Assembly: GCA_951406725.2 (NCBI GenBank)
Contig: OX597819.1
Coordinates: 24,118,001 to 24,182,000, forward strand
DNA length: 64,000 bases
From: Octopus vulgaris
Taxonomy: Eukaryota
Direction: 5' to 3'
A program made the position numbers and the translations under genes. Below the pieces are notes generated by a model, which saw only the letters and a list, made by a program, of their open reading frames with translations, was not told where the DNA came from and searched no databases. Numbering within the stretch: the stretch's first letter is position 1; every line of letters starts with the position of its first letter. Of the stretch, positions 1,500-64,000 are shown piece by piece.

Positions 1500-2370
1500 T
1501 TATTTTTAATTGAACGCCATGCATCCATTTCCAAGTAAGTTTGTCTTAACCTTTTTGATGCAGATCTACTCTATAGTGTTTTATCCCCATTCTACTCTAA
1601 TTCCTTTTTTCTCCCCTTCACCGTTTTCTATCTGTTTTTGTCTCTCTCTCCCCTCTTTTTCTTTTTCTGTCGCTCATTGCACACACGTGACCATCGTCCA
1701 TCTTACTTTTCCTTACGTGAACAACTTTCTTTTCCTGCACGACGTTCTTAAGACTGGATATCTTTTATCTCTCTCTTCTATCTTTTCTCTTTCCAAAGAA
1801 AATGTTTTTCCCAGCATCCACTATTTTCCATTCGTTCTGGTCTAAGGACCCTACATGTTTCCTGTTTTTGTTCCCAAATTTTACCCTCCATAAATCCAAA
1901 ATTATATTTTGGAATTTATGGGAGCAACTGTCTTCGAAGTCTCATTTCCTTGTTGAATGCTCGAAATGAGGATTAGATAGATAGCCGACAACTGATAAAG
2001 GGTCATTCTTTGTGTTACTTGTCCTGTTATCTATTTACTCTTGTTGTTTGCGTATCTAACCCGTTTGTTTTCGTACTTCATGTTGTTTACACAGTTGGTA
2101 ACGTCCTGTACCCATATATATATATACATATATATGTATATATATATATATATATATATTATTTACATTGTTATTTAATTGAACGCCACGCATCCATTTC
2201 CACGTAATTTTATCTTAATCTTTTTGATGCAACTCTACTCTATATTGTTTTCTCCCCCAGACTTTTCTAATTCCTTTTTTCTCCCCGTTACAGCTTTCTC
2301 TCTGTTTCTCTCCCCCTCTTTCCCTGTTCTCTGTCGTTTTTAGCACATTTGGTGACGTCCTGTACCCATA
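1500..2370. repeat. Interspersed (TA)n-associated repeat, two partial tandem units
   Basis: ttgaacgccacgcatccatttcc block at ~1510, ~2179 and ~12190. The aactgat(g)aagg...gacgtcctgtacccatatat block recurs at ~1990-2115, ~11700-11845 and ~34687-34835. Confidence 0.6.
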
Positions 2371-2469
2371 TATGTATATTGCATATATATATTATATATA
2401 TATATACATATATATAGTGTATATATATGTACATATATATTGTGTATATATATACATATATATTCTGTG

Positions 2470-2518
<49 letters not shown>

Positions 2519-2585
2519 ATATTATATATACATATATATTGTATGTATATATACATATTTATTGTATATATATATATACATATAT

Positions 2586-2625
<40 letters not shown>

Positions 2626-2643
2626 CATACATACCCATTGTAA

Positions 2644-2679
<36 letters not shown>

Positions 2680-2889
2680 GCTTTACTACCCACAAGGGGC
2701 TAAACACAGAGAGGACAAACGATTTTAGTCGATTATATCGACCCCAGTGCGTAAGTGGTACTTATTTAATCGACCCCGAAAGGATGAAAGGCAAAGTCGA
2801 CCTCGGCAGAATTTGAACTTAGAACGTAACCGCAAGGATATACTGCTAAGCATTTCGCCCGGCGTGCTAACGATTCTACCAGCTCGCCT

Positions 2890-2890
<1 letters not shown>
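2680..2890 (-). mobile_element. SINE group 2 (ggcgagctggcagaa head; gtcgactttgcctttcatcctttcggggtcgat core)
   Basis: Reverse complement of the element found many times across the window. Confidence 0.8.
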
Positions 2891-2942
<52 letters not shown>

Positions 2943-3428
2943 GCGAGAAAAAAGCAACAAGAATGGATAGGTTTTTAGTACAATCGTTTCATACAAGGAC
3001 AGGCTTTATTAAAAGTAGCAAAAATTGCAGCATATAAACGTGTTGCGTACTCATCAGCTAAAATACATGTGAGTTCTCTAGACATCCTAGTGGTTGAGGC
3101 TATACTCATGAAGTAATGTAGATAATTAAGTAACATAAACAGATTTCCAAAGTTCATTAAAGTTCATTAAAGATGATGTACAGTCTTATCACAGAATTTT
3201 AAAAAAGTTTTAATAGCATCACAGAGAAGGTAACTTAATCCATAGTGTACATATGAATTTCCAGAGATATGAGGAGGGATTACATACTCACAGACGACAA
3301 ATTTATCCATTGCTAATCACAACGAGGTGGGTTTCAATTCCTGCTTATTAGCATTACAGAGAGGGTGAATTAATCCTTTGTATAGATGCACAATTTCCAA
3401 TGGTGTAGATGTAAATTTCCAGAGAAAT
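2943..3428 (-). repeat. Left inverted arm (copy of the pseudo-LTR)
   Basis: Reverse complement of 5605-6090 with about 5 mismatches by eye. The ORF track shows twin 60-aa ORFs at 2975-3157(-) and 5876-6058(+). Confidence 0.95.
2973..3063 (-). ncRNA. Type I hammerhead ribozyme motif (left arm)
   Basis: Minus strand reads ttttag CTGATGA gtacgcaacac...tgtccttgtat GAAA CGATTG TA ctaaaa; helix I is ttttag/ctaaaa. Confidence 0.78.
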
Positions 3429-4479
3429 CTCTCATAGATATCATAGAATTATTTCTAGGAAAACAGTTAGGATTTCTTATTCAACCCTCCCAAATATGTC
3501 CACTTTAATAGCTAAGATTAATAATAACAACATTAAACTAGCCAGGAAAAATAGAAATAAAAATAATAATATCAGCATGAATACCAATAGCAATTATAAT
3601 ATTACTACCAACAATAAAAACAGCAATAGTAACTATCAAAACATGGGTGAAATTAGTTACCACAGAATGACTAATAACATTAACATTAATAGTAATAATA
3701 ACAATACCGATATTAATAGAAGTAATAATGTTAATAATAGAAATAATAGAAATAAGGCTAATAGAGAAAATAAGGAGAATGAAAATATCAGTGATATCTA
3801 TAGCAACAATATGCAGTCGGATAAAAAGACTAACAATAATAGTAACATTACCAATAATATAAGAAATCATGGTAGGACTTTAGACCTAAAAGATGAAACA
3901 GAAGGATCAATAAATAATAGCAATACTTTAGATATCAGCACCAACTATAGAAATATTAATAACAATAAGGACAATTATACTCATGATAATCAAAATAATA
4001 GGAACCTAAGACATCTACCCAAGAATAATCCAAAACCTGAAGTTGTTCCTCCTGTGTGTAAGTGTAGAATAAAATCAAAATGCCCGGCACCTGGTCTATG
4101 CGGGGAAAATAATGTAATCTATAAATGTACCATATCCACGGAGAATAACAAATATTTTTACATTGGATGTACAATTAATTTTCTAGCCAGAGTTAGAAAT
4201 CACATCTCGTCTTTTAAATTACGTCATAAAGCTGGTACCACCACACTTTCAAACAAAATCTGGGAACTCAAAAATAATAATAATAATTACAACCTTAATT
4301 GGGAAATAGTTAGGAGAGCAATTCCGTATAAAAATAGCAGGGTTGGTTGCCAACTATGCTCCATGGAGACGTATGAAATTCTAAAGCATAGAAAACATAG
4401 AAACTTATTGAATAACCATATCGAACTAGGTCAAGTTTGTGTCCACGCTAAATTGGAGACTTTAAAATATTTAAAATGA
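3421..4479 (+). CDS. C-terminal part of a Penelope-like RT-EN polyprotein: linker, Asn-rich insert, Cys motif and GIY-YIG endonuclease (first ATG at 3496)
   Basis: CKCRIKSKCPAPGLC (4057-), VIY (4114-4122)...YIG (4159-4167), R..NH, TTLSNKIWELK, CQLCSME, LLN, terminal CVH. The frame stays open upstream of the ATG as HRYHRIISRKTVRISYSTLPNM, matching the PLE post-RT motif HKIFNRNTVKVSYSCMPN as I recall it. Confidence 0.88.
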   Translation, partial: REISHRYHRIISRKTVRISYSTLPNMSTLIAKINNNNIKLARKNRNKNNNISMNTNSNYNITTNNKNSNSNYQNMGEISYHRMTNNININSNNNNTDINRSNNVNNRNNRNKANRENKENENISDIYSNNMQSDKKTNNNSNITNNIRNHGRTLDLKDETEGSINNSNTLDISTNYRNINNNKDNYTHDNQNNRNLRHLPKNNPKPEVVPPVCKCRIKSKCPAPGLCGENNVIYKCTISTENNKYFYIGCTINFLARVRNHISSFKLRHKAGTTTLSNKIWELKNNNNNYNLNWEIVRRAIPYKNSRVGCQLCSMETYEILKHRKHRNLLNNHIELGQVCVHAKLETLKYLK

Positions 4480-5604
4480 TTAGAATACTCGTAACTAGAT
4501 AGATAGATAGATATAACTTGATTTTTACTAGTATAGCACTGCTTTAAGTAGATAACTAAGAGTTCTCACACTACAGTTATCTTTTTCCTTATATCTGCAT
4601 CAGTTTTTTTTGAGAACAGGGAAATGAATAGTACTTATACGCTGCTTAATTGAGGCTTTATTTAATTTCAAACTCATAATTTTAAATTTTTAAATCTTAA
4701 TTTTAAATCTTAATTTTAATTTTAATTTTAATTCTTAACTTAATCTAATTTAAGTAGCATAACTTTAATAAAATAAAATGAGTTACTAAAGCCCCATAAT
4801 TCTATTTCAAAATTAAATAAATAAGGCTACTCCCTCGGTGATAATATGATTATCTTCATTATGATAGACAATTCCCTAACACCTTGTAAATGATCTTCTA
4901 AGATTTGACCTGTAGTCCGTCAATGTATGAATAATAACGGCAACTCCTTAAGACAGTAAAATGAATAAAATAAATAAATAAATTTTAATAACTTTTTGAT
5001 AAGATTATACTTAGATTTTCCTAATGTATTTTCTTTTGATTTTAGCCTTTGACCACTAAACCCCTAAACCCCTGACCGTGTTATCTCTTTAGATTCTCTT
5101 TAAATTCATAGCTGCTTTCGACAGCAATAAATTAGCTGTTTTACTGGTCAAAGAATAATATTCTCCTCTAGTTCCTAGATGCCTGTAAATTAAAACCAGA
5201 CTTGCCGTCTACTAATTCTTCTGTATAACTAGAACCCTCTTTTTTTCTTTTTCTTTTTTTCCCTTCTTTCCCTATTTCTTTCTCTTTTCTCTTTTTTTTT
5301 TTTTCTTCTTCTTCTTATTCTCTTTTTCTTTTTTTCTTTTTCCTTTTCTCTTCTCTTCTAGCCCCCCCCCTTTTGCTCCCTCCCCCTTTATTTTCTCTCT
5401 TTCCTTCTCTTTCCTTCCCTTTTCTGTTCTTTGCCTCTCCAGAAAGCCCTTCAGCCTTTAAAAGTTAAATAGCTACAGTCTCTTGAAAATAGCAGTAATG
5501 TGATTAATGTGGCAAATACCTAATCATATAGCAAGAATTGATACCCACCCCATTGTGTTCAACCATTGATAAATTTATCGCCTGTGAATATGAAATTCCT
5601 CTTC

Positions 5605-6090
5605 ATTTCTCTGGAAATTTACATCTACACCATTGGAAATTGTGCATCTATACAAAGGATTAATTCACCCTCTCTGTAATGCTAATAAGCAGGAATTGAA
5701 ACCCACCTCGTTGTGATTAGCAATGGATAAATTTGTCGTCTGTGAGTATGTAATCCCTCCTCATATCTCTGGAAATTCATATGTACACTATGGATTAAGT
5801 CACCTTCTCTGTGATGCTATTAAAACTTTTTTAAAATTCTGTGATAAGACTGTACATCATCTTTAATGAACTTTAATGAACTTTGGAAATCTGTTTATGT
5901 TACTTAATTATCTACATTACTTCATGAGTATAGCCTCAACCACTAGGATGTCTAGAGAACTCACATGTATTTTAGCTGATGAGTACGGGACACGTTTATA
6001 TGCTGCAATTTTTGCAACTTTTAATAAAGCCTGTCCTTGTATGAAACGATTGTACTAAAAACCTATCCATTCTTGTTTCTTTTTTCTCGC
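5605..6090 (+). repeat. Right arm (pseudo-LTR) of the Penelope-like element
   Basis: Inverted counterpart of 2943-3428. Confidence 0.95.
5970..6060 (+). ncRNA. Type I hammerhead ribozyme motif (right arm); predicted cleavage after GUA at 6054
   Basis: Helix I 5970-5975/6055-6060; CTGATGA 5976-5982; helix II gtacgggaca/tgtccttgtat; GAAA 6043-6046; helix III ACGATTGT; GTA 6052-6054. Confidence 0.85.
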
Positions 6091-6207
6091 TTATAATCAC
6101 CCCACATTACTGTATTGTTAAAACCGTATAGTTTGTTTTGGTGCATCTAAGTTAGGTACCATATTCAAGTAAATTCATTTAAATTAACTTGAATCTTTAT
6201 TGCTTTT

Positions 6208-6246
<39 letters not shown>

Positions 6247-6384
6247 CTGTAGTGTGGTTTATAGGGCATGGTATACAATGTGATCCTTTGTTCTGTATTT
6301 CAAAGCTGTGTTACTAGGTATCTAATTAATTTCAAATTCTATTAATTTTCATCCATATCTAGAAAACAATGTATATATATAAAT

Positions 6385-6811
6385 AAAAAAAAAGGCATCG
6401 GAGGGGCGATGAATACCCTGCGCGCAGATATATATATTTTTTTGCACATTATAGTGTGACTTACAGTGAGTTACTTACCCATGCTTTTAATTGAACTAAA
6501 TTAAGCTCTGTAAGTGTTTGACTTAAAGAGCCTACAGTCGCATATGTATGTATGTACTCACATGTGTCTACATGCATGGGTACAGCATGATCCTTCCACA
6601 CGTAGATGAGGCGTGATTCATATGATAAAGAAAGCGAACAAAATGAAAAACCTCTAGAAAATATTGAGAAGTGTATGACCACTTGCTTATCGAGAAATTT
6701 GTAAATTCGATTAAAAAATGTTTATTTAAGTATCACCATTATAGCTATTTATACTCTCGTGAAATTAAGAAATTAACTTGTAAATAAACGAAAACCCTCG
6801 AATACATCACT

Positions 6812-6870
<59 letters not shown>

Positions 6871-7065
6871 CGTATACTTATGTATGTATTTATGCATGTT
6901 TGAAGATAATTAAACCATATTTTTATCATTTTGAGCCACTCTCCCAGTGAATATTTCTGCCAAGTTTCGTGAAAATCAGTTTAGCGGTTTTCCAGTAATT
7001 TTGCAAACAAACAGACAAACAAAAGTGATTACAACACAATGCTTTCGCTTACACGCGCAGGGTAA
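6385..7065 (-). mobile_element. Non-autonomous Helentron-associated (HINE/DINE-1-like) element
   Basis: 11-bp subterminal inverted repeats taccctgcgcg (6414-6424) / cgcgcagggta (7054-7064); hairpin catcg-gagggg-cgatg beside an A-run at one end; internal (CA)n; caagtttcgtgaaaatc...caaacaaacagacaaac block. Confidence 0.6.
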
Positions 7066-7239
7066 ACGTGAAGAATACAGCCCATACGTTAATTCAGTAC
7101 ATCCTTTCACTTTGCAGAATCTTGATTCTGTTAAAACGATGAACTTTCAGACTACTATACATTATTTCAAGGCAAGTATACAAACTCTGATGATTTCACG
7201 ATGTAGTCTGAATGTAAAGTACATCTCTGCCTAACAGAA

Positions 7240-8230
<991 letters not shown>

Positions 8231-11113: not shown

Positions 11114-11844
11114 TATATGTATATGTATGCAATAAGGTGTGGATTGACAGGAAAAAATTATCACACAAAATACCTTGCATTATCTAGTTATCTAGTAACT
11201 GAGTGCAAATTTACATTCTTTACAAGTAAGTAAAATGAGTGACAAATACTGAAACCAAATTCATGGACATTTACAAACTTTATGACGCAGAGCCGGAGCC
11301 AAAAATCAAAATAGCCTCACTCTTACAATATGTACCGTTCTATATTTTTATATTTCAGGCTACGCAAGTGCAAAAGTTAATTCAAGTTTTATGGAATTAT
11401 CTCCCTTGCTTTAATACATACATACATACATACATACATACATGTAGCTTGAAAGAGGAAAACGTGTTCTCGTTTGTCTCCTGTCCAAGCTTGATTTACG
11501 CGTTGGCGACCACAACCTCGTTTAGGCTTACCAGCCCTTCCTGTTTGTTTTCACTCTCCTGTTTTTGTTACCAATTTTGACCCTCCGCAAAATCCCAAAC
11601 TTTATTTAATTTGCTTTGCGGGAGGAAAGCAAATTTGTTTTATCGAAAGCGTATATTGTTGTTAAATGCTCGAAATACGAGACTAGATAAAACAGCCAAC
11701 AACTGATGAAGGGACGTTTTTTTACGTTGTTCGTTTTGTTTTCCATTTCTGTCTTTTGTTGTTCGAAAGAATAGTTCATGTTCCATGTACTCGTGCTTCG
11801 TATTTTTTTGTTGTACACGTTTCGTGACATGCTGTACCAACATA

Positions 11845-11902
<58 letters not shown>

Positions 11903-11954
11903 TATATATATATATATGCATATATATATATATATATGCATATATATATATATA

Positions 11955-11992
<38 letters not shown>

Positions 11993-12086
11993 TATATATA
12001 TATATATGCATATATATATATATATGCATATATATATATATATATATATGCATATATATATATATATGCATATATATATATATATA

Positions 12087-12140
<54 letters not shown>

Positions 12141-12254
12141 TATGTATATATGCATATACATATATATATTATTTATATTATTATATGACTGAACGCCACG
12201 CATCCTATTCCAAGTAAGTTTTATCTACATACATACATACATGCATTCATACAT

Positions 12255-19059: not shown

Positions 19060-20706
19060 ATGGTAGTTTCAAATGTTGACACAAAACCAGCATTCGGAGG
19101 AGCTAATTCGATTACGTTTACCCCAGATCAATTGGTACTTATTTTACCGACCCCGAAAGAATGAAAAGCAAATCGACCCGACAGCATTTAAAATCAGAAC
19201 GGAAAGACGGATAAAATGCTGCTAAGCATTTTGTACGGCTGTTAAAAATTCTGCAAGTTTACCGCCTTTAACTAATGGTTTCAGTACTTGACTGATGCTT
19301 TATTTCATTGCTCCGAAAGGATGGAAGGCAAAGTCCAGCTCGCCAGAATTTGATTTCAGTGATTTATGAGCCAGAAAAAAAAATGCTGCGATGCATTTTG
19401 TCCCACATGATAACGATTTTGGAAGTTCGGCGCTTGAAAATAATTATTTCAAATTTTGGCACTAATCCAAGCAATTAGGTTAACCGATTATATCGACCCA
19501 GTACTTGACTGGTACTTTATTTTATCGACTCCAAAAGGGTGAATGGCAAATTTGGTCTTCATGTGATTCGAAATCAGATGTTAAAGAGCCGGAAGAAATT
19601 TCGTCTTTCTAACGTCTCTGTCATAGGCATAAGGCCAGACTTTTGGGGGTAATAACAATAATAATTGTCTTATGTTCCAGGCACAAAAAAACCCAGAGTT
19701 TTTGAGGGGAGGGGTAAGTCCGTTAACTACACCCCACGACTTGACTGGCATTTTATTTTACTGGCCACAGAAGGATGAAAAGGAAAGTTAACTTTAGTGG
19801 GGTTTGAACTCAGAACATTCAGAGGCAGAACAAATGCCGCAATGCATCTTTTCCACACTCTAACAGTTCCGTCACCTCACTTGTCTAGCTACTATTAGAA
19901 CAATGGTTTCAAATTTTGGTGCAAGGCCAGCAAGTTCAGGGGAAGGGGTAAGTCGATTATATCTCTCCACCCCAGTGTTTCAATTAGTACTTGATATATC
20001 AACACCGAAAGGATAAAAGGCAAAGTCGATCTCGGCAGTATTTGAACTCAGAGCGTCAGAGATGGGCTAAACATTTTGTCAGCTCGTGCTAACGATTCTA
20101 ATAATCATTTCTACTGGATGTACAAGGCCTCAAATTTGTGGAGAGGGAACTAGTCGGTTACATCGACCCCAGTGTTTCACTGGTACTTAATTTATCAACA
20201 CCGAAAGGATGAAAGGCAAAGTCAACCTCGGCAGTATTTGAACTCAGAGCGTAGAGATGGGCTAAATATTTCGCCCAGCGTACTAACGATTCTTATTTGT
20301 TTACTGCCCACAAGGGGCTACACACAGGGGACAAACAAGGACAGAGAAACGGACTAAGTCGATTATATCGACCCTAGTGTGTAACTGGTACTTATTTAAT
20401 CGACCCCGCAAGGATGAAAGGGAAAGTCGACCTCGGCGGAATTTGAACTCAGAACGTAGTGGCAGACGAAATACCTATTTCTTTACTACTCACAAGGGGC
20501 TGAACACAGAGAGGACAAACAAGGACAGACAAACGGATTAAGTCGATTATATCGACCCCAGAACGTAACTGGTACTTATTTAATCGACCCCGAAAGGCTG
20601 AAAGGTAAAGTCGACCTCGGCGGAATTTGAGCTAAAAACGTAGCGGCAGACGAAATACCGCTAAGCATTTTGCCCGGCGTGCTAACGATTCTGCCAACTC
20701 GCCGCC
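19060..20706 (-). mobile_element. Cluster of about 8 co-oriented SINE group 2 units of differing age
   Basis: Repeated gaaaggatgaaaggcaaagtcgacctcggcggaatttgaactcagaacg; older units on the left, near-consensus units at 20290-20706. Confidence 0.8.
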
Positions 20707-27879: not shown

Positions 27880-29139
27880 AGGTTTGGACAAAATAATGGA
27901 AACACCTAGGATCATAGCAGCATGGTTTTCAAATATCTATAAAACCGTCAAAAGTTTGTTTATTTTTATGTTTTTTGATATATTGTTAGTGTTGCTTAAT
28001 ATATTTTGCTAAAATTGTTTATTTTCAGATATAATCAGAAAAAGGTAATGAAAATTCATTAAAATGACAGATCTATCGGAGTTTCAAAGATGTCAAATTG
28101 TTGGTGCTGTATGGCAAGCGCTAGCATAAAGAAAACAGCTGAAATGTTTGGTGCGTCAACAAGTAATGTCTCGAAAGTAATAACAGCCTTTGAGAAAGAG
28201 GGTGAAACCTCCTCGTCGAAACAAAACTCCAGAAAAAAACCAAAACATTCAGATAGAGACCGTCGGACTCTTACTTCACTTGCTAGAAAGGATCACAAAA
28301 GTACAGCTCCCAAAATTACTGCAGAGCTTAATGACCACCTCGCGAACCCAGTTTCTACAAAAACTGTTCGCCGGGAGCTGCACAAAGCCGCATTTCACGG
28401 GAGGGCTGCAATCAGAAAAACCACTACTTTCAAAAGCAAACGTTGCAAAGCATTTAGAGTTGAGTAAAAACCTACAGAATTGGTCCCTAGAGCAGTGTAA
28501 GAATGTTATTTTCTCGGACGAGTCATCCTTTACCTTATTTCCGACCACCGGCCGAGTAAACGTGTGGAGACAGCCAAAAGCAGCATTTGAACTAGACTGC
28601 CTTCTTCCGATTGGAGGAGGATCTGTGATGATGGAGGGGTGGGGGCTATATCTTGGAAATCTGCCAGCCCAATGGTTTCCGTTCATTGCAGAATTAAAAG
28701 TCAACACTATTTAAGCATTTTATCGGATTAGATTTATCCTATGGTTGCGGAACTGTTTCCAGAAGGAAACGCAATCTTTTAGGATGATAATGCACCAATT
28801 CACACAGGTGAAATTGTTACTGAATGGCACGAGGAACATTCTAGTGAAGATGAACATCTTATCTGGCCACCACAGTCCCCAGATCTCAATATTATTAAAC
28901 ATTTATGGTGCATTTAAAAGAAAAGTAAGGAGTCGATATCTTCCACCATCATCACTACAAGAACTGGCGACAGTTTTAGCTGAAGAATGGGCAAAAATTC
29001 CTTTGGAAACAATTCAAAGTTTGTACAAATCCATACTTCGTACAATTCAAATTTTAATTACTGCCAAAGGCGGTCCTACTCCATATTAAAATAAATTTGT
29101 TTGAAATTTTAAGGTGTTTCCATTATCTTATCCAAACCC
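27880..29139 (+). mobile_element. Full-length Tc1-like DNA transposon
   Basis: ~28-bp TIRs ggtttggacaaaataatggaaacacct / aggtgtttccattatcttatccaaacc, flanked by TA repeats. Confidence 0.92.
28064..29089 (+). pseudogene. Tc1 (DD34E-type) transposase with frameshifts and stops
   Basis: MTDLSEFQRCQIVGA...VSTKTVRRELH...VIFSDESSF...GGGSVM...DDNAPIH...WPPQSPDLNII...AKGGPTPY, spread over three frames. Confidence 0.92.
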
Positions 29140-39090: not shown

Positions 39091-39499
39091 GGAGTGAGGA
39101 GGGGCAACTAGTTCTCAGGATCTACATTTGGCGGAGGTGGTAGCTATTTATGTAAGCAGTCAACACCGGATTAGTCGGTGGAGGTAAAGATGTTGCTTAT
39201 TGATAGGTACAGTGGCATTTCTCTTCTAGATATACATCTATCTTACCTGTAATATATCCCCCTTCTCGTCTTCACTCCCCACCACCTTTCCCTTCATCAG
39301 CATCCTCATCATCATCATCATCACGATCGGCATCATCATCATCGTCATTATTATTAAGCAAGACAGCAACACCAGCAATAATGGCGGCAGCTGCATCTCC
39401 GCTGCAATCGCCGGTGTTGCTCCGCCCACCCGCTTACTTTCTCTTCTCTTTCTCTCTACTACTACTACTACTACTACAACAACAACAACAACAACAAAA

Positions 39500-39530
<31 letters not shown>

Positions 39531-39586
39531 TAACCATAACAAAACTATCAGCGCCACTACTACTACTACTACTACTACTACCACCG

Positions 39587-39665
<79 letters not shown>

Positions 39666-39697
39666 ATACTAATACTACTACTACTACTATTACTACT

Positions 39698-39915
39698 ATT
39701 TGTACCTCTTTCGTCACTAATACTACTCTCACTACCACCACTACTACTACTTTAACACCGCCACCACCACCATTATTAATATTACCATTACAACTACTAC
39801 CACCACGATCACTACCATCTTTTCCAGCACCGATTACGCCACCATCACCACCGCCACAACTACTACTACTACTATTACTACTACCACTACCACCACCACC
39901 ACCACCACCACCACC

Positions 39916-39967
<52 letters not shown>

Positions 39968-40426
39968 TTATTTGTATCTCTTCCGTCACTAATACTACTC
40001 TCACTACCACTACTACAACTACTTTATCACCGCCACCACCACCAGCACCAGCACCACCACCACCACCACCACCATTATTAATATTACCATTACAGCTACT
40101 ACCACCAGGACCACTACCATCTTTTCCAGCACCGATTACGCCACCATCACCACCGCCACAACTGCTACTACTACTACTACTAAAACTACTACTACTACTA
40201 CCACCACCACCACCACCACCGCCACTACTACTAATACTACTACTACTATTTGTACCTCTTCCGTCACTAATACTACTCTCACTAGCACCACTACAACTAC
40301 TTTAACATCGCCACCACCACCAGCACCACCACCACCACCATTATTAATATTACCATTACAGCTACTACCACCACGACCACTACCATCTTTTCCAGCACCG
40401 ATTACGCCACCACCACCACCGCCATA

Positions 40427-40523
<97 letters not shown>

Positions 40524-40528
40524 TTACA

Positions 40529-40565
<37 letters not shown>

Positions 40566-40602
40566 TTCCAGCACCGATTACGCCACCATCACCACCGCCA
40601 CA

Positions 40603-40671
<69 letters not shown>

Positions 40672-40838
40672 GCTACTACTTGTACCTCTTCCGTCACTAA
40701 TACTGCTCTCACTACCACCACTACAACTACTTTAACACCGCCACCACCACCATTATTAATATTACCATTACAACTACTACCACCACGACCACTACCATCT
40801 TTTCCAGCACCGATTACGCCACCATCACCACCACCACA

Positions 40839-40894
<56 letters not shown>

Positions 40895-40938
40895 CACTAC
40901 TACTACCACCACCACCGCCACTACTACCACCACCACCG

Positions 40939-40994
<56 letters not shown>

Positions 40995-41200
40995 GCTACT
41001 ACTACTACTAGTATTTGTACCTCTTCCGTCACTAATACTACTCTCACTACCACCACTACAACTACTTTAACACCGCCACCACCACCACCACCACCAGCAC
41101 CACCATTATTAATATTACCATTACAACTACTACCACCACGACCATTACCATCTTTTCCAACACCGATTACCACCGCCACAACTACTACTACTACTACTAG
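39698..41200. repeat. Higher-order tandem repeat: ~150-bp conserved core plus variable (ACT)n/(ACC)n spacer, 5 full copies and 1 partial
   Basis: ttgtacctcttccgtcactaatactactctc...ccattattaatattaccattaca...cttttccagcaccgattacgcc at ~39698, 39970, 40248, 40679 and 41013; partial at ~40563. Confidence 0.9.
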
Positions 41201-41758: not shown

Positions 41759-42096
41759 GGCGGCGAGTTAGCAGAAACGTTAGCAACGCCAGGCGAAATG
41801 CTTAGCAGTATTTCGTCTGCCGTTACGTTCTGGGTTCAAATTCCGCCGAGGTCGACTTTGCCTTTCATCCTTTCGGAGTCGATAAATTAAGTACCAGTTA
41901 CGCACTGGGGTCGATGTAATCGACTCCATCCGTTTGTCTTTCCTTGTTTGTCCCCTCTGTGTTTAGCCCCTAGTGGGTAGTAAACAAATAGGTATTTCGT
42001 CTGCCGCTACGTTCTGAGTTCAAATTCCGTCGACGTCGACTTTGCCTTTCATCCTTTCGGAGTCGATAAATTAAGTACCAGTTACGCACTTGGGTC
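41759..42096 (+). mobile_element. SINE group 2 with partial second body unit
   Basis: Head ggcggcgagttagcagaaacg plus two cores. Confidence 0.85.
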
Positions 42097-42099
42097 GAA

Positions 42100-42560
42100 A
42101 TAAGAAAATACAATGAAATGCGATAAAAGTATACATGGTGCACAATATATGTGATAATATGAATAATGCAGCCCTCCTGATACAGGAGAAACTCCAGTTA
42201 GGGCCAATCAAAGACCCCCACAGATTCAGGATTACCCTGACCATCAAAGGCACGAGCTCTCTCTCCTGCTTTTCAATCTGCAGACGCATACATAGAGTAA
42301 GGTCATTCACTTTAACCATTTTTTCTACAATCACCCATCTTTTCACAAATTCAGAGGGAGGTAACACTTCATCCTCTAACCGCACTCTTCTTTCCTAGTG
42401 GAACTAAAAAGGTCGATGAGAGCTTGACTGAAGAGGAAAGTGTCTTCACTCAATCCTTTCAGCCTCGTCCACCATACAGCCTCTTTTGCCATAGGCTCTA
42501 GACAGAAGAACACTGCCTACTCTGACTTGTTAAAGGTGTGCGGTGGGGTGATCCACACGA
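42100..42560 (-). mobile_element. 3' end of an L1/Tx1-like LINE ORF2 plus UTR, decayed
   Basis: Minus translation ITPPHTFNK..AVFFCL..MAKEAVWWTRLKGL...RVRLEDEVLPPSEFVKRW resembles L1/Tx1 ORF2 C-termini; a similar UTR remnant lies at ~23720-23960. Confidence 0.55.
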
Positions 42561-63441: not shown

Positions 63442-64000
63442 GTCGTCGTCGTTTAACATCCGTTTTCGAAGCCGGCTTGGGCTGGACGGTTTGACTGAGC
63501 GCTGACCAGCCAGAAAGCTGCACCGGGCTCCAATCCGATCTGGCAAAAATTTCTACAGCTGCATGCCCTTCCTAACGCCAACAACTCCGTGAGTGTAGTG
63601 GTTGCTTTTACTTGCCACCGGCACGAGGGCCAGTAGGCGGTACTGGCAACGATCACGCTCGAATGGTGCTTTTTACGTGTTACCGACACAGGAGCCAGTC
63701 AGGCGGCACTGGCAACGAGCACGCTCGAATGGTGCTTTTTACGTGTTACCGGCACGGGAGCCAGTCAGGCGGCACTGGCAACAACCACGCTCGAATGGTG
63801 CTTTTTACGTGTTACCGGCACGGGACCAGTCAGGCGGTACTGTCATCGGCCACGACGACAACTTCACTTGTTTCAACAGGTCTTCGCAAGTGGATTTTAT
63901 TGCCCAATGTTTGAAGGTTACTCTGAAATGGGCTGGTTATGCTGCACCGGCACAGGCCACGGTTACGGTCTCACTTGGCTTGACGGATCTTCTCAAGCAC
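63251..64000 (-). mobile_element. RTE-like retroposon 3' region with (GAT)n tail and internal 65-66-bp tandem repeat
   Basis: (CAT)n at 63251-63451 abuts ttaacatccgtttt...ggacggtttgac...tgcccttcctaacgccaac; tandem units start near 63630, 63695, 63761 and 63826. Confidence 0.6.

Follow-up and report, generated by a model that had tools for sequence, protein, structure and literature searches.

The window analysed here is a 64,000-nucleotide (nt) stretch of Octopus vulgaris DNA (contig OX597819.1, positions 24,118,001 to 24,182,000, numbered from 1 below). Near its left end lies what is very probably a 5'-truncated insertion of a Penelope-like element (PLE) of the Hydra clade, with an inverted second copy of its own 3' end at the break. 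Clade-typical endonuclease motifs, a truncation point inside a motif that follows the reverse transcriptase (RT) in relatives, RT-linked kin and variable breakpoints among other copies all agree with an earlier reading of the letters alone (the sequence-only reading), which had proposed a 5'-truncated PLE with an inverted pseudo-long terminal repeat (pLTR). The copy in the window is likely unable to move by itself.

Layout of the insertion and its hammerhead motifs

The insertion and its flanks comprise the following features (RT-EN, RT joined to endonuclease; ORF, open reading frame; TRF, Tandem Repeats Finder).

2893–2941, no strand: (TA)n target, left flank (TRF, 24.5 copies, 100%)
2943–3428, minus: left arm, an inverted copy of the element's 3' end without tail (5/486 mismatches to 5605–6090)
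2973–3063, minus: left type I hammerhead motif, stem II weakened by two substitutions, predicted cut at 2979
3429–4479, plus: end of the RT-EN ORF, 5'-truncated, stop-free (ORF list, motif alignments)
3433–3498, plus: post-RT (thumb/linker) motif, residues 7–28, aligning with residues 279–301 of P0072, 396–417 of P0019 and 520–541 of P0192
3484–4056, plus: Asn-rich linker, 191 residues, 34% Asn, between post-RT motif and finger
4057–4479, plus: GIY-YIG endonuclease of Hydra type, with CxCx5C linker finger, no CCHH, and CxxC plus CxH (motifs, predicted fold)
4480–5604, plus: long 3' untranslated region, the portion not duplicated in the arm (read depth, TRF)
5605–6090, plus: right arm, the element's 3' end, pLTR-like (inverted-repeat comparison)
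5970–6060, plus: right type I hammerhead motif, 60-nt stem II region, 2-base-pair (bp) stem III, predicted cut after 6054
6091–6209, plus: optional 3' tail, family sequence, 119 nt (114 nt if TTATA is assigned to the arm)
6210–6244, no strand: (TA)n target, right flank (TRF, 17.5 copies)

Direct comparison of the left arm with the reverse complement of the right arm gives 481 identical positions out of 486 (98.97%), with mismatches at 2955/6078, 3017/6016, 3044/5989, 3045/5988 and 3232/5801, which bears out the earlier estimate of about 99% identity over 486 bp. With one extra mismatch the match extends to 2938/6095 (491 nt, 99%), where the left arm runs over TATA common to the (TA)n flank; this 491-nt pair is the longest inverted repeat in the window. 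The (TA)n sequence noted earlier on both flanks corresponds to the two TRF arrays, and the tail is present on the right end only. Inside the 3' region there is a 104-nt direct repeat (5530–5633 and 5688–5791, 84/104 identical, period 158), and the inner end of the arm, at 5605, sits within its first copy. The 3' region also contains a pyrimidine tract of about 200 nt, at about 5237–5440, that ends near a CAG at 5440–5442; tract and CAG together possibly form a splice acceptor, or are plain low-complexity sequence.

Each arm carries a hammerhead core (CUGAUGA...GAAA...GUA) with a 6-bp stem I. A motif scan of the 64 kb found these two hammerheads only, against a mean of 0.04 and a maximum of 1 in 100 shuffles. 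The Rfam model Hammerhead_1 (RF00163) scores the right copy at 18.4 bits (E 0.054), under its gathering score of 34, and treats the long stem II as a skipped insert; a wider Rfam scan of 1500–8000 returned no hammerhead at E<=1. MicroRNA and small nucleolar RNA rows over microsatellites were dismissed as chance. The G-U pair that closes stem II occurs in the published Hydra set too, in which stem II is shorter.

For the right motif, the constrained hammerhead fold has a computed energy of -12.5 kcal/mol against -14.5 for the free fold, whereas the left motif gives -3.4 against -11.3 kcal/mol for a different free fold. The left hammerhead is thus predicted to be weakened and not equivalent to the right one. 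From its core and stems, the right motif would represent the canonical hammerhead near the 3' end that is typical of Hydra elements. Stem III has 2 bp with a self-complementary loop (duplex -5.8), and for motifs with such a minimal stem III, those of amphibians are described in PMC7229834, in the part of it used here, as cleaving better as dimers. The role of hammerheads in PLEs is left unresolved in the published passages we draw on. The sequence-only reading had placed a hammerhead near each outer end, and a type I motif is indeed found in both arms, the left one with its weakened stem II. Its further suggestion, that a transcript of either strand would end in a working ribozyme, loses ground: any one transcript holds a single hammerhead motif in sense orientation, the left motif has a poor predicted fold, and the panhandle of a read-through RNA would bury the right motif in duplex.

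The endonuclease frame and its truncation point

The stop-free frame runs from 3415 to 4479 (354 residues), its first 14 nt belonging to the left arm. A Pfam search with the whole frame returned nothing relevant, only a chance GLTP row, while PF01541 matched the C-terminal part with an E-value of 0.0022, short of the cut-off. A structure predicted for the C-terminal 143 residues (pLDDT 88.8) has I-TevI as its best match, with a Z-score of 9.1 and a root-mean-square deviation of 2.6 over 90 residues; EndoII and UvrC come next. Nothing in Foldseek passed E<=0.001, and its top row was again I-TevI, with E 0.058. The top Atlas features are shared with GIY-YIG clusters at 0.95–0.96. The endonuclease residues R, H, E and N are conserved. 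The I-TevI fold match, the weak PF01541 hit and the Atlas features together identify a C-terminal GIY-YIG domain, a trait of endonuclease-bearing (EN+) PLEs, and the stop-free GIY-YIG frame of the sequence-only reading is upheld.

Section 11 of PMC8557442 (Craig et al. 2021) gives, for the Hydra clade, a CxCX5C linker finger, no CCHH, CxxC and CxH around E and N, a canonical hammerhead and (TA)n targets. All the endonuclease-side features in this list are found in the window. The linker finger is formed by C215, C217 and C223; in alignment A2 the CxxC, E, N and CxH correspond to C101, C104, E107, N122, C131 and H133, and the Y25–Y38 stretch, where CCHH would be expected, has one Cys right after the first motif and no pair. 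The sequence-only reading's comparison of a CxCx5Cx5C linker and a terminal CxH with the Hydra-type clade agrees with the clade motifs in that section. A homing endonuclease or a Terminon-type stand-alone endonuclease was considered and rejected: Terminon endonucleases have CX2-5CxxC plus CCHH, and the window frame has a post-RT motif.

The frame begins within the post-RT motif, which also aligns with P0185 and sits after the RT in P0072, P0019, P0185 and P0192. Thirty protein hits have both this motif and the linker finger, and 15 of them also show a WFNPPY-type motif 36–38 residues further upstream; in the window the arm occupies its place, and both the WFNPPY-type motif and the RT are missing. 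The order of motifs is as in Fig. S7 of PMC8557442, compared by eye. No RT was detected in the window: 92 RT-bearing proteins match only at 3.3–3.5 kb and 3.9–4.4 kb, the two conserved parts of the frame, confirming the absence of RT noted earlier. Contigs from other copies, described below, continue upstream. Between the two conserved parts, the linker is much longer than the median of 28 residues in the 30 hits with both flanking motifs, and the RT-bearing P0072 has a 72-residue stretch with 33% Asn at the same position. The first ATG, at 3496, encodes the conserved Met at the end of the post-RT motif.

A search of 1.84 billion representative proteins returned 3324 at E<=0.001, the closest being gene models named as Octopus vulgaris and O. 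sinensis, in line with an octopus as host. We built a FastTree phylogeny from 105 of 228 excised endonuclease domains, which include every RT-linked domain and the 25 best hits. The window pairs with P0002 (Octopus sinensis, XP_029636861.1) at support 0.998, and this pair joins two RT-linked Argonauta proteins at 0.902, the node inside that group having a support of 0.145. The latter proteins, from Argonauta hians (GAB1597860.1, P0019, and GAB1607445.1, P0072), contain the nearest RT-linked endonucleases and have Asn-rich stretches around the same motif, but are just 34–39% identical to the window's endonuclease. RT motifs RW[KR] and DKT are present in the RT-linked hits (P0103, P0105; alignment A3). 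To judge from the sequence, the frame is a fragment of an RT-EN ORF and not a stand-alone gene, because its start lies inside a motif found just after the RT in relatives and its nearest kin in the tree are RT-linked.

We also examined 78 metagenome loci, picked by RT motifs using RT-bearing relatives; their RT content is therefore by construction, many are redundant, and they are not from octopus as far as known. The window endonuclease matches 61 of them. By motif scan, a hammerhead follows downstream in 32 of the 62 endonuclease-bearing loci, and in 26 of the 43 with at least 300 nt of room. Inverted repeats are present in three of the loci. In locus L067, where RT is present, a truncated RT-EN frame is flanked by arms of 231 nt, each of which carries a hammerhead, and the right end has (TA)n. 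In the related loci L045 (1–105, 1791–3274) and L049 (1–139), inverted pieces of the locus's own ORF adjoin the main copy, and in L045 an inverted endonuclease piece is found on both sides.

Three Octopus gene models, P0001 (CAJ1099352.1), P0021 (CAJ1099364.1) and P0002, start with pieces of the family's frame. The Asn-rich linker occurs in two Octopus vulgaris gene models (94% and 77% identical), joined to ankyrin-repeat or G-protein-coupled-receptor-like parts, and a donor-like GTAAGT is located at 4058–4063, where the P0001 match stops. These pieces reflect either mis-annotation or exonisation.

Other copies of the family and the surrounding sequence

Contigs from 4 of 24 listed sequencing runs were mapped on 3369–6211; X1, X2 and X3 are DNA, and X10 is RNA by guess only. 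The pyrimidine tract was skipped in read mapping. Relative to the ORF, summed depth at 5839–6123 is 11.3x in X1, 15.5x in X2 and 6.3x in X3, and the ratio of outer to inner arm depth is 2.3, 3.6 and 1.8, respectively, whereas a fixed two-arm unit would predict 2 for the 3' end over the ORF and 1 for the outer over the inner arm. Depth in the tail bin is 7.7, 1.1 and 3.3 times that of the ORF. In X1, X2 and X3 alike, the long 3' region is covered about as deeply as the ORF, the pyrimidine tract excepted. Furthermore, 20 contigs in X1 exit at 6095 into (TA)n, which is the tailless end also seen in the left arm; together with the TRF flanks, they document the (TA)n insertion typical of Hydra elements.

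Several contigs break or continue differently from the window copy. In a 766-nt contig from X10 the match starts at 3427, preceded by 238 letters without a counterpart in the stretch; in one from X2 it starts at 3429, preceded by 10 letters. Two other inversion joints were found, each in one contig: 5468/5892 (X10) and 3421 (= 5612) to 5894 (X3). Look-alike sequence in the window copy explains neither, with only 5/32 and 9/29 letters identical. The two joints are independent, come from different runs and have ends no more than 2 nt apart at 5892–5894, a possible breakpoint hot spot.

Breakpoint mapping of other copies in the source genome had been suggested as a check, on which the contigs bear. 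In these contig data, the family's copies fit variable 5' truncation, a trait of EN+ PLEs, and not copying as a unit, because of the depth gradient in all three DNA runs, the two other joints and the contigs running upstream of the breakpoint. Given the contig depth and the (TA)n exits, the tail and the long 3' region are family sequence. The tail had been called unique and right-only; it is right-only and unique inside the window, but family contigs cover it deeply, so that unique host DNA was rejected as its origin, as was host DNA captured at the locus for the 3' region, whose depth equals that of the ORF.

Of seven checked sites at which most reads have another letter, six are identical between the arms, and the remaining one has the majority letter in the left arm. 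The shared minority letters suggest a single template for both arms, or later homogenisation, and argue against an in-silico mirror image. At no fewer than 15 of 2843 sites the copy departs from the letter of most reads (hand count on 40 of 122 rows, with support of >=80% in each of X1, X2 and X3). The earlier description of the insertion as young holds only in the sense of this low divergence, with the arms 1% apart, figures that give no date.

Elsewhere in the window, a dispersed repeat of about 210 nt with internal subrepeats lies directly left of the (TA)n flank, at 2681–2892, and in more than 30 other places at 72–87% identity; an inverted pair at 20363–20680 and 41786–42103 is due to it. 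It is presumably a short interspersed element. A second dispersed repeat, (TA)n-associated, is found at 1468–1683, 1950–2415 and 11659–12226, in pieces 71–88% identical. A broken transposase occupies 28063–29086, with HTH_Tnp_Tc3_2 at E 9.8e-08 in 28063–28464 and no Pfam hit in the two neighbouring frames; it is likely a Tc1/mariner remnant. The window further contains a long, complex (ACT/ACC)n array with higher-order repeats (39400–41100) and a frame-like tandem repeat at its end (63599–64000).

Proposed formation, rival explanations and known systems

We propose that a full-length RT-EN source copy elsewhere supplied the RNA, the RT and the endonuclease. The GIY-YIG domain would nick (TA)n and the nick would prime cDNA synthesis, with the RT starting at the tail end, copying about 2.8 kb in the direction of the 5' end and stopping near 3427–3429. 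A second copy of the same template would start at the tailless end, whose TTATA matches the target, and run to 5605, to be joined head to head with the first, likely via a 2-nt overlap (the X10 contig matches from 3427). The hammerhead would likely trim the 3' ends of precursor RNAs, probably as a dimer because stem III is minimal. The formation of PLE inverted ends is stated to be unresolved in the relevant parts of PMC8557442 and PMC3846280, and an insertion that holds both 3' ends, with and without tail, each meeting (TA)n, provides a useful case for it.

Several points weigh against a truncated PLE with an inverted 3' end. No RT-bearing protein or locus of this family appeared in the word-indexed protein, 1.84-billion representative or metagenome searches, and no RT-bearing copy of the exact family was read letter by letter. 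A search by endonuclease words for longer proteins gave 71 candidates, none of them scored, which is weak evidence; of 8000 candidates scored in the near-length search, three were hits, each of them an RT-less Octopus gene model; an RT search with P0072 gave 82 hits, none named as Octopus; and a metagenome scan with the window protein gave 597 pattern matches, none confirmed. These protein collections cover repeats poorly, with just those three proteins of the family found. Summed contig depth is no copy number, and the 3' depth could be inflated by short derivatives that carry a hammerhead. For each alternative joint there is one contig, with 29–32 letters on its short side, and no contig crosses the 3428/3429 junction among the pieces listed (32 of 10,533). 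The tree, built without Penelope/Poseidon, Neptune, Nematis and Naiad references, shows nearest kin, not clade membership. Finally, the length of the 3' region is tenfold that of the sampled relatives.

The missing RT could also mean an endonuclease-only lineage, which we regard as very unlikely. The RT would have been lost, for example by an internal deletion upstream of 3427, translation might start at ATG 3496, and another PLE would mobilise the element in trans; the GIY-YIG domain, its own (TA)n-targeting nickase, would be kept under selection along with the hammerhead, and the 238 letters of X10 would be a new 5' end. If true, this would be an unusual half-autonomous retroelement. The stop-free frame, the conserved catalytic residues and the failure of the protein and metagenome searches to find an RT-linked family protein would suit it, as does the sequence upstream of 3427 still being unread in other copies; PLE ends can mobilise unrelated sequence in trans, by the account in PMC3846280 as far as used here. 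But the frame starts inside the post-RT motif, its first ATG being that motif's conserved terminal Met, the nearest relatives are RT-linked, one of them (P0072) likewise with an Asn-rich linker, and the failed searches were made in collections poor in repeats. A narrow literature search found no RT-lacking GIY-YIG Penelope in print, which does not show absence. The sequence-only reading had named, as its alternative, an RT-less family that copies as a unit, an idea disfavoured by the varying contig breakpoints and by the start of the frame.

Copying of the whole 3.27-kb insert as a fixed unit with inverted terminal arms, in the manner of a DNA transposon or foldback element, is exceedingly improbable: arms of 99% identity and the bounded look of the insert speak for it, but depth is uneven and rises within the arm, other junction pairs exist, contigs pass 3427–3429 into other sequence, and the tail is at one end only. 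We give as little credence to an inverted arm created in assembly, whether through a fold-back chimera or because two copies were misjoined across (TA)n. Such structures trouble assemblies, according to PMC8557442 in the part consulted, and the lack of a listed contig bridging 3428/3429 would fit; yet the arms differ at five sites, so that neither is an in-silico mirror of the other, they have six letters in common that are absent from most reads, the sequence at the junction is non-repetitive, and the layout is typical of the group. A non-LTR retrozyme (LTR, long terminal repeat), as defined in PMC7229834 and bioRxiv 10.64898/2026.07.22.740005, is not indicated either, the window having one inverted pair around a coding frame and no such tandem array.

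The probable truncated Hydra-clade insertion is mostly ordinary, its layout already being described for the group, save for the long 3' region, the linker and the hammerhead stem. In PMC8557442, in the sections used, inverted 5'-truncated copies and a one-sided tail are typical of PLEs, and Penelope-13_HM, a Hydra-clade element, has the same layout: its 5' end carries an inverted copy that is itself 5'-truncated, and hammerheads are present on either strand. The window element shows these pLTR-type inverted ends and one-sided tail, the latter of 114–119 nt rather than 30–40 nt; the RT expected upstream in the same ORF is absent from this copy. With the Hydra clade, as partly described there, it has in common CxCx5C, the lack of CCHH, CxxC/CxH, a putative hammerhead near the 3' end and (TA)n. 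Of 24 published Hydra consensus sequences covered by that source, 10 end at <=45 nt and 13 at 55–150 nt past the hammerhead; the two ends in the window, 35 and about 150 nt past it, fall in both groups, so that tails of around 115 nt may be typical of the clade.

The differences concern size. The endonuclease-to-hammerhead distance is 1503 nt in the window, compared with a median of 139 and a maximum of 525 in the 32 related loci, in which stem II with its loop takes 10–29 nt rather than 60. Hydra elements are given as 'generally <3 kb' in the same part of PMC8557442, whereas the truncated body here already measures 2781 nt without RT, with a 3' region of 1616 nt, and we estimate a full-length copy at about 4.5 kb. 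Hydra-1_Obim from Octopus bimaculoides belongs to the same clade and shares the (TA)n target, but its hammerhead and endonuclease sequences differ (compared by eye only), it has no Asn-rich linker and it is 2507 bp long in the record used, making it a different family. The window thus adds a distinct octopus Hydra-type family, which carries little weight beyond repeat annotation. The portion of PMC13282606 used here lists 31 recently active Penelope-like families in the O. vulgaris repeat library, which may already hold this one.

The Asn-rich linker recalls the inserts of Adineta, and the 60-nt stem II belongs to a hammerhead that Rfam scored below threshold. In the part of PMC3846280 (Arkhipova et al. 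2013) on which we draw, Adineta vaga Penelope has in-frame Asn-rich inserts (25–30% Asn), one of them between RT and endonuclease, and it includes 5'-truncated copies with inverted pLTR flanks, an optional tail on one arm and microhomology junctions. They differ in having inserts of about 460–550 residues, a 31-bp tail and pLTRs of 181–218 bp.

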